This document shows, one piece after another, positions 19,462 through 56,323 of a stretch of 64,000 nt of DNA (within the stretch, counting starts at the first letter, position 1; the number at the start of each line of letters is the position of its first letter). The position numbers and the translations under genes are program-made. The notes under the pieces were generated by a model, which saw only the letters and a program-made list of their open reading frames with translations, did not search any database and was not told the DNA's origin. Source of the stretch: Escherichia coli (lineage in GTDB: Bacteria; Pseudomonadota; Gammaproteobacteria; Enterobacterales; Enterobacteriaceae); assembly GCF_050920415.1 (NCBI RefSeq), contig NZ_CP169309.1. One strand, given 5' to 3'.

Positions 19462-20667
19462 TTAGCGTAAGTTAACCAGCGTGTTGAGGATCTGGTCCTG
19501 AGTTTTGATGGTCTGGGCGTTAGACTGATAGTTACGCTGGGCAACGATCATATTGACCAGTTCTTTGCTGAGATCGACGTTGGACGCTTCCAGCGCACCG
19601 TTGGTCAGGGTGCCAAAGTTGCCCGTCCCGGCAGTCCCCAACAGCGCCACGCCAGAAGATTGCGTCGCAGACCAGACATTGTCACCTTCAGATGCCAAAC
19701 CTTCGTTGTTGGCAAAGTTCGCCAGTACAATCTGCCCCAGCAGTTGGGTTTGTTCGTTGGAATAGTTGCCGACAACCGTACCGTCATCATTGATTTGATA
19801 ACTCACCAGATCGCCCGGTTTATAGCCGTTCTGGGTGGTTGCCACAATGTTGTTAGCACCGGTATTTTGCTGCATGGAGTTGAGGAAGCTCAGGCTAAAC
19901 GTGGCGGGATCTGCGCCGTTAATTGCGCCGGTGGTAATATCCTTTGTTGGATCTGAGGTCAGAACGCCATTGGCATTAAACAACAGCGTCGTTGCAGGGT
20001 TAGCTGTGCCTTTTGGATCACTGCTATCCAGGGTGTAAACATCCCAGTTATTATCCCCGGTCTTCACAAAATAAACGCTCATATCATGAGCATTACCCTG
20101 ACTATCGAAAACAGTCACCGAACCTTTTTTGTTATAGCTATCCGCATTGCTGGCATCGAATCCTTTAACAGAGGGAAGCGGATCACTGGAATTCAGGTTG
20201 ATCTGCATCGACGCCGTGGTGGTAGTTTTCGCTGCCATCAGGGTATTCGGGATCGAAATATTGGTCGGATTCGCCCCTTGTTGAATAGTCGGCGGCGTAC
20301 CGGTTGCCGGGTAACCCGTCAGCTGTAAACCTTGCATATTCACCAGGTTACGGTTTTCATCCAGCTTAAATTGTCCGTTACGGCTGTAGAACACCGAACC
20401 GTTGCTGTCTACCAGACGGAAAAAACCGTTCTGGCTGATAGCAACGTCCAGACCACGCCCGGTGTTGGTGGTCGTGCCATCGGTAAAGTCCTGAGTGATA
20501 CCGGCAACTTTTACCCCCAGTCCCACTTTCGAACCGGCAAACATATCGGCAAAAGAGGCCGTGCCTGATTTAAAGCCGTAGGTGGCGGAGTTGGCGATAT
20601 TGTTGCCAATAACATCGAGGTTGGTGGCGGCAGCGTTTAATCCGCTAACCGCTTGAGAAAAGGCCAT
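19462..20667 (-). CDS. flgE: Flagellar hook protein
   Basis: 401-aa ORF recognised as FlgE. Confidence 0.95.
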   Translation of the reverse strand: MAFSQAVSGLNAAATNLDVIGNNIANSATYGFKSGTASFADMFAGSKVGLGVKVAGITQDFTDGTTTNTGRGLDVAISQNGFFRLVDSNGSVFYSRNGQFKLDENRNLVNMQGLQLTGYPATGTPPTIQQGANPTNISIPNTLMAAKTTTTASMQINLNSSDPLPSVKGFDASNADSYNKKGSVTVFDSQGNAHDMSVYFVKTGDNNWDVYTLDSSDPKGTANPATTLLFNANGVLTSDPTKDITTGAINGADPATFSLSFLNSMQQNTGANNIVATTQNGYKPGDLVSYQINDDGTVVGNYSNEQTQLLGQIVLANFANNEGLASEGDNVWSATQSSGVALLGTAGTGNFGTLTNGALEASNVDLSKELVNMIVAQRNYQSNAQTIKTQDQILNTLVNLR

Positions 20668-47897: not shown

Positions 47898-48281
<384 letters not shown>

Positions 48282-48339
48282 ATTCATCTCCCGAAAAAAA
48301 ACAGGGCTTACGCCCTGTTTCTGTAATACGAAATATAAA

Positions 48340-48795
48340 TTAGTACTGATGAGCGGTCGCGTTGTTGCCAAAACCAACCTGAGTAACGTTTACGCTAGAG
48401 TTAGATGCAGTTTGATCAACTGCAGCACCGTTACCACCACCAAACTGTTTAACAGTCATTTCAGAGTTTTTACCGTTCCACTGATCAAGAGTGGCACTGT
48501 TACCGAAGCCACGTTGGGTCAGATCGATTGAGCTGTCATCAGAGCCCTGACCAACATCTGCACCGTTACCGCCACCGTGCTGGGTAATCGTCAAGTCAGA
48601 GTTACGAGCATCAGTTTGCAGAGCAAGTGCAGAGTTACCACCACCGTACTGGTAAATATTCAGCTCTGAATTTGGGCCGCTATTATTACCGCCACCGCCA
48701 TGGTGACCACCACCGCCATACTGAGGAATAGAACCTGCCAGAGCGCTACCAGAGAATACGATTGCTGCAATTGCTGCTACTTTTAAAAGTTTCAT
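48340..48795 (-). CDS. csgA: Major curlin subunit CsgA
   Basis: 151-aa ORF with five imperfect amyloid repeats (S-x5-Q-x-G-x-G-N-x-A). Confidence 0.97.
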   Translation of the reverse strand: MKLLKVAAIAAIVFSGSALAGSIPQYGGGGHHGGGGNNSGPNSELNIYQYGGGNSALALQTDARNSDLTITQHGGGNGADVGQGSDDSSIDLTQRGFGNSATLDQWNGKNSEMTVKQFGGGNGAAVDQTASNSSVNVTQVGFGNNATAHQY

Positions 48796-48835
48796 GTAAA
48801 ACCCCCATCGGATTGATTTAAAAGTCGAATGGAAA

Positions 48836-49291
48836 TTAACGTTGTGTCACGCGAATAGCCATTTGCGACTGTCTCTGCACTACAATTGCCGTTTTTTGAG
48901 TACCATACTGTGTAATATTTGCTTTATTACCAGAACCTTTCTGGATAATCATCGCAGTATTACCATAAGCACCTTGCGAAATACTGGCATCGTTGGCATT
49001 GCCCGCCTGATCAATATATGCAAGGTTATAATCTCCTGTCTGGTCAATCTTTGCCCGGTTGCTACTACCTTCTTGCGCAACAACCGCCAAAAGTTTTGAG
49101 CCTCCCTGCCGTAACTGCGCACTATTATTAGTCCCAGCTTGACCAATTATGGCTGCCTGATTAAATGAAGACTTACTCAATTCATTTACCGCGAAGTTAT
49201 ATTCTGAATTAGCTAAATCATAACCTGCTGCGGCTGCAATCCCAGGCGCACCCAGTATTGTTAACATCATAAATAACAATTTGTTTTTCAT
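48836..49291 (-). CDS. csgB: Minor curlin nucleator subunit CsgB
   Basis: ORF 48836..49318; start chosen at MKNKLLFMMLTILGAPGIAAA (151 aa). Confidence 0.95.
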   Translation of the reverse strand: MKNKLLFMMLTILGAPGIAAAAGYDLANSEYNFAVNELSKSSFNQAAIIGQAGTNNSAQLRQGGSKLLAVVAQEGSSNRAKIDQTGDYNLAYIDQAGNANDASISQGAYGNTAMIIQKGSGNKANITQYGTQKTAIVVQRQSQMAIRVTQR

Positions 49292-50045: not shown

Positions 50046-50696
<651 letters not shown>

Positions 50697-51557: not shown

Positions 51558-52391
51558 ATGCAGCGCTTATTTCTTTTGGTTGCCGTCATGTTACTGAGCG
51601 GATGCTTAACCGCCCCGCCTAAAGAAGCCGCCAGACCGACATTAATGCCTCGTGCTCAGAGCTACAAAGATTTGACCCATCTGCCAGCGCCGACGGGTAA
51701 GATCTTTGTTTCGGTATACAACATTCAGGACGAAACCGGGCAATTTAAACCCTACCCGGCAAGTAACTTCTCCACTGCTGTTCCGCAAAGCGCCACGGCA
51801 ATGCTGGTCACGGCATTAAAAGATTCTCGCTGGTTTATACCGCTGGAGCGCCAGGGCTTACAAAACCTGCTTAACGAGCGCAAGATTATTCGTGCAGCAC
51901 AAGAAAACGGCACGGTTGCGATTAATAACCGAATCCCGCTGCAATCTTTAACGGCGGCAAATATCATGGTTGAAGGTTCGATTATCGGTTATGAAAGCAA
52001 CGTTAAATCGGGCGGTGTTGGGGCAAGATATTTTGGGATCGGTGCAGACACGCAATACCAGCTCGATCAGATTGCCGTGAACCTGCGTGTCGTCAATGTG
52101 AGTACCGGTGAGATCCTCTCCTCGGTGAACACCAGTAAGACGATACTTTCCTATGAAGTTCAGGCGGGGGTCTTCCGCTTTATTGACTACCAGCGCTTGC
52201 TGGAAGGGGAAGTGGGTTACACCTCAAACGAACCCGTTATGCTGTGTCTGATGTCGGCTATCGAAACAGGGGTCATTTTCCTGATTAATGATGGTATCGA
52301 CCGCGGTCTTTGGGATTTGCAGAACAAAGCAGAACGGCAGAATGACATTCTGGTGAAATACCGCCATATGTCGGTTCCACCGGAATCCTGA
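51558..52391 (+). CDS. csgG: Curli secretion channel lipoprotein CsgG
   Basis: 277-aa ORF with lipobox LSGC. Confidence 0.96.
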   Translation: MQRLFLLVAVMLLSGCLTAPPKEAARPTLMPRAQSYKDLTHLPAPTGKIFVSVYNIQDETGQFKPYPASNFSTAVPQSATAMLVTALKDSRWFIPLERQGLQNLLNERKIIRAAQENGTVAINNRIPLQSLTAANIMVEGSIIGYESNVKSGGVGARYFGIGADTQYQLDQIAVNLRVVNVSTGEILSSVNTSKTILSYEVQAGVFRFIDYQRLLEGEVGYTSNEPVMLCLMSAIETGVIFLINDGIDRGLWDLQNKAERQNDILVKYRHMSVPPES

Positions 52392-55588: not shown

Positions 55589-55676
55589 GGTGAGGTGTCC
55601 GAGTGGCTGAAGGAGCACGCCTGGAAAGTGTGTATACGGCAACGTATCGGGGGTTCGAATCCCCCCCTCACCGCCA
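55589..55676 (+). tRNA. serX: tRNA-Ser (anticodon GGA)
   Basis: 88-nt cloverleaf: acceptor stem GGTGAGG/CCTCACC, long variable arm, T-loop GGTTCGAATCC, anticodon loop CTGGAAA, 3' GCCA. Confidence 0.93.
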
Positions 55677-56323
55677 TCTTTAAAGAAGAGCTCGTACGAA
55701 AGTACGGGCTTTTTTTTCGTATATTGCACACGCCGGGGGGATGAGAAGCCCCGACAGGGGTTCGACAACTGGCGACAGCCAGTTGGACAGACCGTGAACG
55801 CAGTGAGCGGGCTGCCCGCAGGGCGAGCGAAGCGAGTCAATCCCCCCCTCACCGCCATCTTTAAAGAAGAGCTCGTACGAAAGTACGGGCTTTTTTTTCG
55901 TATATTGCACACGCCGGGGGGATGAGAAGCCCCGACAGGGGTTCGACAACTGGCGACAGCCAGTTGGACAGACCGTGAACGCAGTGAGCGGGCTGCCCGC
56001 AGGGCGAGCGAAGCGAGTCAATCCCCCCCTCACCGCCATCTTTAAAGAAGAGCTCGTACGAAAGTACGGGCTTTTTTTTCGTATATTGCACACACCGGGG
56101 GGATGAGAAGCCCCGACAGGGGTTCGACAACTGGCGACAGCCAGTTGGACAGACCGTGAACGCAGTGAGCGGGCTGCCCGCAGGGCGAGCGAAGCGAGTC
56201 AATCCCCCCCTCACCGCCATCTTTAAAGAAGAGCTCGTACGAAGGTACGGGTTTTTTTTTTCGTATATTGCACACACCGGGGGATGAAAAGCCCCGACCG
56301 GGGTTCGACAACTGGCGACAAAC
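55658..56323 (+). repeat. Tandem array, about 3.6 copies of a 181-bp unit, starting inside the serX 3' end
   Basis: Units start at 55658, 55839, 56020 and 56201, each beginning with aatccccccctcaccgcca (the last 19 nt of serX) followed by a terminator hairpin and T-run; copies 1-2 identical, copy 3 has one substitution, the last partial copy is more diverged. Confidence 0.9.

Follow-up and report, generated by a model that had tools for sequence, protein, structure and literature searches.

A rare Escherichia coli csgA allele with a Ser-Ile docking hexapeptide in a short, probably recombined tract

Introduction

The N-terminal segment of the mature curli subunit CsgA, known as N22, targets the protein to the secretion channel CsgG, as an earlier note on this locus had stated and as the literature confirms (PMC6957492, PMC7217966). 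That note compared the N-terminus encoded in a stretch of 64,000 nucleotides of E. coli DNA (the window) with a K-12 sequence, and ascribed the difference to ordinary allelic variation. The question raised by this locus is what the difference consists of, how it could have arisen, and whether docking to CsgG would be affected. We consider it likely that the window carries a rare natural csgA allele, with a recombined tract of about 450 bp, whose product docks to CsgG essentially as K-12 CsgA does.

Results and Discussion

The csgA gene and its differences from K-12

The csgB, csgA and csgC genes of the window lie on the minus strand and csgDEFG on the plus strand, diverging from them, in an arrangement that is colinear without gaps with the csg locus of K-12 MG1655. 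The features needed for the comparison are as follows.

48340-48795, minus strand: csgA, curli major subunit, 151 codons plus stop (open reading frame list and translation)
48736-48795, minus strand: signal peptide, codons 1-20, MKLLKVAAIAAIVFSGSALA, the same protein sequence as in K-12
48670-48735, minus strand: N22 segment, codons 21-42, GSIPQYGGGGHHGGGGNNSGPN, containing all three replacements
48718-48735, minus strand: N6 hexapeptide G1-S2-I3-P4-Q5-Y6 (GVVPQY in K-12), the part bound in the CsgG crevice (PMC6957492)
48727-48732, minus strand: codons 22-23, TCT ATT (Ser-Ile) for GTT GTT (Val-Val), from alignment to K-12
48703-48705, minus strand: codon 31, CAC (His) for AAC (Asn), from alignment to K-12
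48343-48669, minus strand: amyloid core repeats R1-R5, codons 43-151, protein 100% identical to K-12
48836-49291, minus strand: csgB, minor subunit and nucleator, 2 nucleotide differences from K-12 (S98N)
47949-48281, minus strand: csgC, chaperone, 4 nucleotide differences from K-12 (T3A, V24M)

The 151-residue protein scores 240.8 bits over its full length (1-151) with the NCBIfam CsgA equivalog model NF007470, for which the cut-off is 160, and only 34 bits with the CsgB model. The Pfam repeat Curlin_rpt (PF07012) matches in five stretches (E = 1.4e-27), in keeping with the five repeats R1-R5, and the RefSeq sequences identical to this gene carry the csgA annotation. In its length of 151 residues, signal peptide, R1-R5 core and csgBAC/csgDEFG context the window gene is like that of K-12, for which structures of the N22 peptide (PDB 6L7C) and of the fibril (8ENQ/8ENR) are available. 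Chain S of 6L7C is the K-12 N22 peptide, and the window segment aligns with it over positions 1-22.

MG1655 csgA (b1042, NP_415560.1, NC_000913.3 1104447-1104902) was taken as the K-12 reference. Residues 21-36 read GSIPQYGGGGHHGGGG in the window and GVVPQYGGGGNHGGGG in MG1655. The difference is thus real; the K-12 sequence given in the earlier note agrees with b1042, and the alignment did not return an identical N22 from K-12. Exactly three residues of the protein are replaced, all of them within N22: V22S (GTT>TCT, 48730-48732), V23I (GTT>ATT, 48727-48729) and N31H (AAC>CAC, 48703-48705). The interval 48706-48735, to which the difference had been assigned, holds codons 21-30 (GSIPQYGGGG) and leaves the N31H codon 1-3 nucleotides outside, while the 16-residue peptide that was quoted with it spans 48688-48735. 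Residues 1-21, comprising the Sec signal peptide and Gly21, match K-12 exactly, with a single synonymous change (codon 15, TCC>TCT) in the signal peptide region; cleavage presumably takes place before Gly21, as we assume from K-12.

At the nucleotide level, csgA differs from K-12 at 35 of 456 positions (92.3% identity) with no indels. Thirty codons differ synonymously, 24 of them in R1-R5, and the replaced codons are clustered: all three fall in N22, as compared with none of the 24 differing codons in R1-R5 (Fisher p = 0.011). It is noted that codon 134 (48394-48396) keeps its serine and changes codon family, from TCC in K-12 to AGC in the window, which requires two base changes, either through a non-Ser intermediate or as a double hit. 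The AGC codon is common to many other alleles and is consistent with old allelic lineages.

A divergent tract in a nearly identical background

Comparison with EC42405 delimits the region in which the two sequences part.

48286-48732: divergent recombinant tract with sharp edges, 45 differences in 447 bp from EC42405

Within this tract the window is about 10% divergent from an otherwise identical background. Outside it, no difference is found across ymdB-ymdA-csgC and one in csgB, and the tract is flanked by difference-free stretches of about 1.4 kb and about 385 bp. One edge falls at the Ser-Ile codons and the other in the csgA-csgC spacer. EC42405, which has the same flanks as the window, carries a csgA allele of the Val-Val (VV) type. 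The same csgA DNA as in the window is found in two flank haplotypes about 0.65% apart, the second being that of the 2013C-4282 type.

The local character of the divergence is also seen against K-12. Mismatches amount to 35/456 in csgA and 7/58 in the csgA-csgC spacer, as compared with 2/456 in csgB and 4/333 in csgC; identity is 99.6% for csgB, 98.8% for csgC and 96-99% for the other genes of the locus. The synonymous divergence dS is 0.33 for csgA, versus 0.010 for csgB, 0.026 for csgC and a mean of 0.084 for 13 flanking genes.

Short-tract recombination that yields mosaic alleles is an ordinary process in E. coli. Among 17 E. coli csgA alleles, Rmin is at least 20 within 456 bp, neighbour-site incompatibility is lower than in all 1,000 permutations, and a table of the variable sites displays clear mosaics. 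Taken with the tightly bounded tract of 45 differences and the two flank haplotypes, these results argue for short-tract homologous recombination and not for mutation in situ; as read from these sequences, they indicate that the three N22 changes are part of a 447-bp recombinant tract and not isolated point mutations. Ordinary point mutation in the window's own lineage, without recombination, is very unlikely. Such a process would accommodate the nature of the changes, all of them simple base substitutions, and the absence of indels from csgA relative to K-12; however, the differences in the tract adjoin kilobase stretches that have none, and the Ser-Ile codons need three base changes in four adjacent bases while recurring as the same codons in six Escherichia lineages. 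The presence of the same csgA DNA on different flanks stands against point mutation as well, and so does a between-species divergence of csgA no faster than that of its neighbours, which speaks against a local mutational hot spot.

The spacer between csgA and csgC (48282-48339) is itself mosaic. Its 7 differences from K-12 are concentrated just past the csgA stop codon, and 9 nucleotides differ between the window and genomes of the 2013C-4282 type in which csgA is identical. It also contains the following element.

48294-48320, minus strand: terminator-like hairpin with a T-run, AAACAGGGCGTAAGCCCTGTTTTTTTT, from a ViennaRNA fold

The stem of this hairpin is conserved relative to K-12 and one loop base is changed. 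A simple consensus terminator scan did not call it, and the hairpin is given here as a structural observation only.

Possible sources of the tract

A scan of genome contigs with CsgA, which gave 42 species loci, found no donor for the tract, none of the loci exceeding 92% nucleotide identity to the csgA of the window. When the 35 csgA differences from K-12 are sorted by where else the window base occurs, 10 are found only in non-coli Escherichia, 16 in both groups, 3 only in mainstream E. coli and 6 in none. The three nucleotides that specify Ser-Ile belong to the 10 non-coli-only differences and are present in 6 of 6 non-coli Escherichia alleles. In the absence of a donor (non-coli alleles reach 88-92% at best), and with 6 of the 35 differences having no counterpart in the panel, the tract could as well stem from an old E. 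coli allele kept by descent as from a recent import.

In the explanation that we favor, a tract of about 450 bp, from csgA codon 22 through the csgA-csgC spacer, would have been swapped in by homologous recombination, out of a pool of deeply diverged Escherichia csgA alleles. With it would have come the Ser-Ile docking hexapeptide, which E. albertii, E. whittamii and the cryptic clades normally have, the Asn-to-His replacement in the glycine-rich linker and some 30 silent changes.

Rarity in E. coli and related alleles

The frequency of the Ser-Ile (SI) form was determined in 5,426 complete RefSeq E. coli genomes, a biased sample to which the window's own genome does not belong. A diagnostic 32-mer, designed so that each megablast seed is forced across the Ser-Ile codons, finds the SI form in 4 of these genomes, versus 5,343 for the matched Val-Val control 32-mer. 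A sensitive scan returns 5,341 exact VV matches, 13 with one mismatch, none with two, and 4 with three, the last being the SI genomes. The HH-type 30-mer occurs in 7 of the 5,426 genomes, comprising the 4 SI genomes and 3 VV genomes. At an identity of at least 99% to the window, csgA is found in only 3 of the 5,426, most genomes lying at 89-93%. The earlier description of the difference as ordinary allelic variation is right in that the variant is a natural one, but at 4/5,426 for SI and 7/5,426 for HH the word ordinary understates its rarity.

The exact CsgA protein is RefSeq WP_000771423.1, a known protein allele of a well-known gene. Carriers are E. coli 2013C-4282, WL297, MFDS1022581 and also AP025751.1, in all of which both the protein and the csgA DNA are identical to those of the window. 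Three complete RefSeq genomes have identical csgA DNA, as do six assemblies found by way of the exact protein, for which the index of a large assembly collection lists about 1,072 blocks. With such recurrence, a sequencing or assembly artefact is hardly credible. The nearest sequence found is AP025751.1 (GCA_030295195.1), with 1 mismatch to the window in 10,456 bp, whereas the flanks of the 2013C-4282-type genomes are about 0.65% different, the 9 spacer nucleotides included. With this nearest genome and a divergence of 2.9% from MG1655 over the whole window, the strain is not K-12, as the earlier note had concluded.

Three related alleles share parts of the same backbone. WP_000771422.1 (N96) combines SI and HH with DST in R3/R4; its gene is identical to the window allele over nucleotides 1-135, and its 3' half turns mainstream-like. 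WP_032183915.1 (2020CK-00188) has VV with HH and is identical to the window allele over nucleotides 91-360, while WP_039021652.1 (2017-02-2CC and strain 35) has VV, HH and DST. With their shared backbone parts and different breakpoints, these alleles are examples of the mosaic structure of csgA.

Over the region 36000-60000, the best 24-kb matches are EC42405, 2020CK-00188, WL297 and 2013C-4282, at 99.0-99.1%, and most genomes lie at about 97%. Only 14 of 5,464 records reach at least 99% over this region. The window comes from a lineage that is uncommon in E. coli, and the csgA allele can be used as a marker of lineage or of recombination.

The Ser-Ile form outside E. coli

All six sampled non-coli Escherichia lineages encode GSIPQ(Y/F) with the same TCT ATT codons. 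The six are E. albertii, E. whittamii, MOD1-EC7003, E1V33, 'E. coli' E69 and 'E. coli' SCPM-O-B-8794, the last two being separate GTDB species representatives; SCPM-O-B-8794 CsgA has HH as well as SI. The non-coli csgA genes are 88-92% identical to that of the window, and their flanks 81-96%. Their proteins have substitutions in the core (L57V, T61A, D91E and others) that are missing from the window CsgA. Judged by the 88-92% identity of csgA, no non-coli Escherichia lineage in this set is a plausible direct donor.

The universality of SI in these lineages, together with the small number of records that match the 24-kb region at 99%, would also fit a window that itself comes from a non-coli Escherichia or a cryptic clade, with SI as the norm of its species. 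This origin is highly improbable. The flanks are 98.1-98.6% identical to K-12, as compared with 81-96% in other Escherichia species, the entire window is colinear with MG1655 at 97.1%, the CsgG, CsgE and CsgF proteins equal those of K-12, and the close relative with the same flanks, EC42405, has a VV allele. By these sequence comparisons, the window is E. coli sensu stricto.

In a wider set of 40 Enterobacteriaceae CsgA homologues, position 2 of the mature protein is Ser in 19, Ala in 9, Val in 7, Leu in 4 and Met in 1, and position 3 is Val in 26 and Ile in 14. Gln5 is present in 40 of 40 parsable homologues, and the commonest heptapeptide is GSIPQYG.

Predicted docking of the Ser-Ile hexapeptide to CsgG

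The structure of CsgFG with the N22 peptide (PDB 6L7C) was described by Yan et al. in 2020 (PMC6957492), and the GVVPQY hexapeptide was seen by cryo-EM bound in a CsgG crevice. Val3, termed conserved, is buried in a hydrophobic pocket of CsgG formed by I121, L172, L236 and W237 (PMC6957492). Congo-red binding is abolished by V3D and Q5A and lowered by Y6A, and V3D abolishes secretion (PMC6957492). The Kd is 23.8 uM for GVVPQY with CsgG (PMC6957492) and 0.53 uM for the full N22 peptide (PMC7217966). A second role of N22 is to shape the conformational ensemble of CsgA (PMC7217966).

V22S and V23I affect two of the six CsgG-contacting residues, and V23 is the 'conserved Val3'. At position 3 the window CsgA has Ile and not the Val of the published motif (PMC6957492), while P4-Q5-Y6, and with it Gln5 and the aromatic sixth residue, is unchanged. 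The third replacement, His31, is in the Gly-rich linker, which is absent from the resolved structure and is His/Trp/Gly-rich and variable in length across the family. The receptor gene in the window is the following.

51558-52391, plus strand: csgG, secretion channel that recognizes N6, protein 100% identical to K-12

There are 24 synonymous and no nonsynonymous differences from K-12 in csgG, and the groove residues T31, G32, I107-R110, I121, L172, L236, W237 and D238 (mature numbering) are all as in K-12. CsgG, CsgE and CsgF taken together are 100% identical to K-12 in protein, with 47 synonymous and no nonsynonymous differences. The pocket residues are invariant in the window, K-12, E. albertii and the E1V33-type locus, where variation is confined to residue 107 of the loop and residue 171. 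Co-variation between N6 and the CsgG groove was considered and rejected, CsgG being that of K-12 and the pocket invariant in the SI species.

After Sec export and removal of the signal peptide, GSIPQY would dock in the periplasmic CsgG crevice that is used by GVVPQY, with Ile3 filling the hydrophobic pocket of I121, L172, L236 and W237 and with the unchanged Gln5 and Tyr6 supplying the critical contacts. L172 and L236 are described as relatively distant from Val3 (PMC6957492), so there should be room for one more methylene, that is, a larger side chain. Since Ile3 occurs in 14 of the 40 Enterobacteriaceae homologues, the requirement at position 3 appears to be for a hydrophobic, beta-branched side chain rather than for Val as such. 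From these comparisons we infer that the SI/HH N22 acts as a normal CsgG-targeting signal, possibly with a quantitative change in affinity or release. With GSIPQY docking like GVVPQY and R1-R5 unchanged, secretion and the behavior of the amyloid core should be essentially those of K-12. Congo-red staining is positive for E. albertii strains whose csg genes are intact (PMC11420993), which, should these strains carry the SI allele, would lend indirect support to secretion with this form.

An alternative is that the N22 changes tune function, by altering the affinity for or release from CsgG or the chaperoning of the repeats and hence curli output, with VV and SI held as a balanced polymorphism. 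We regard this as unlikely, for all that two of the three changes are among the six CsgG contacts, one of them at the key Val3, and that all replacements are confined to N22 (p = 0.011), a segment known to modulate the CsgA conformational ensemble (PMC7217966). The bimodality of the site in E. coli, with zero two-mismatch intermediates, and the narrow peak of silent diversity in csgA (5.7% versus 0.5% in csgB and 0.9% in csgC), of the kind expected near a balanced site, are also on its side. However, the frequency of SI in E. coli, about 0.07%, is far below the intermediate level of a balanced allele, and the diversity peak persists among VV alleles (5.3% in mainstream alleles only), so that it is not tied to VV/SI. 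The unchanged CsgG, CsgE and CsgF, the pocket that stays invariant in the SI species, the conservative nature of Val-to-Ile and the free variation of position 2 across the family argue against tuning as well.

In whole Escherichia species, Ile stands in place of the 'conserved' Val3 and Ser in place of Val2, with no change in the CsgG pocket. What the recognition motif appears to require is, accordingly, Gln5, an aromatic sixth residue and, at position 3, a hydrophobic residue that is beta-branched, a refinement of use for engineered living materials in which N22 is the secretion tag.

csgA as a possible peak of diversity across E. coli

The mean pairwise difference in the same 18 genomes is 5.7% for csgA, 0.5% for csgB and 0.9% for csgC; the panel is small and was picked along csgA identity, and the peak is to be read as a lead only. 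Between K-12 and the B2 strain NGF1, the differences are 8.3% in csgA, 0.4% in csgB and 1.5% in csgC. The csgA diversity is mostly synonymous and forms a narrow peak within 47949-49291 (csgC-csgA-csgB). A mutational hot spot in csgA was rejected: divergence between species is 10-13% for csgA, as compared with 8-14% for its neighbours. Because csgA is no more divergent than its neighbours between species, the peak suggests old alleles reshuffled by recombination and not hypermutation. Literature searches on csgA nucleotide diversity, on csgA alleles or recombination and on the SIPQYGG motif returned nothing relevant.

Inside E. coli, the silent-site-dominated divergence of csgA reaches 11%, which equals the divergence between E. 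coli and E. albertii. It is conceivable, if quite doubtful, that csgA is a long-lived trans-species polymorphism with the VV/SI hexapeptide dimorphism as one functionally relevant target. If so, allele lineages dating back to the origin of the genus would survive and exchange segments a few hundred bp long, with csgB and csgC on both sides remaining nearly identical, and VV/SI would act, for example, via secretion kinetics or via contacts of the surface-exposed N22 with host or phage. The peak of silent diversity may merit a proper population-genetic test.

Other differences in the window

CsgD (50046-50696) differs from K-12 by S19P and S110A. The idea that csgA is a unique outlier in the window was rejected: csgA belongs to the top 2.6% of 456-bp windows, but two other patches are more divergent. 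The strongest peak of divergence from K-12, up to 11.8% per 456-bp window, lies at about 19600-20350 and maps to flgE (about 1,133,400); it is probably another recombinant or variable-domain patch. A second strong peak of about 11%, at about 56280-57650, maps to K-12 dgcT (ycdT). Here the alignment to K-12 is interrupted at 56281/56367, adjoining the K-12 site of IS3D, ymdE and ycdU, and there may be a local repeat near tRNA-Ser (serX), to judge from short secondary alignments that overlap at 55658-56320.
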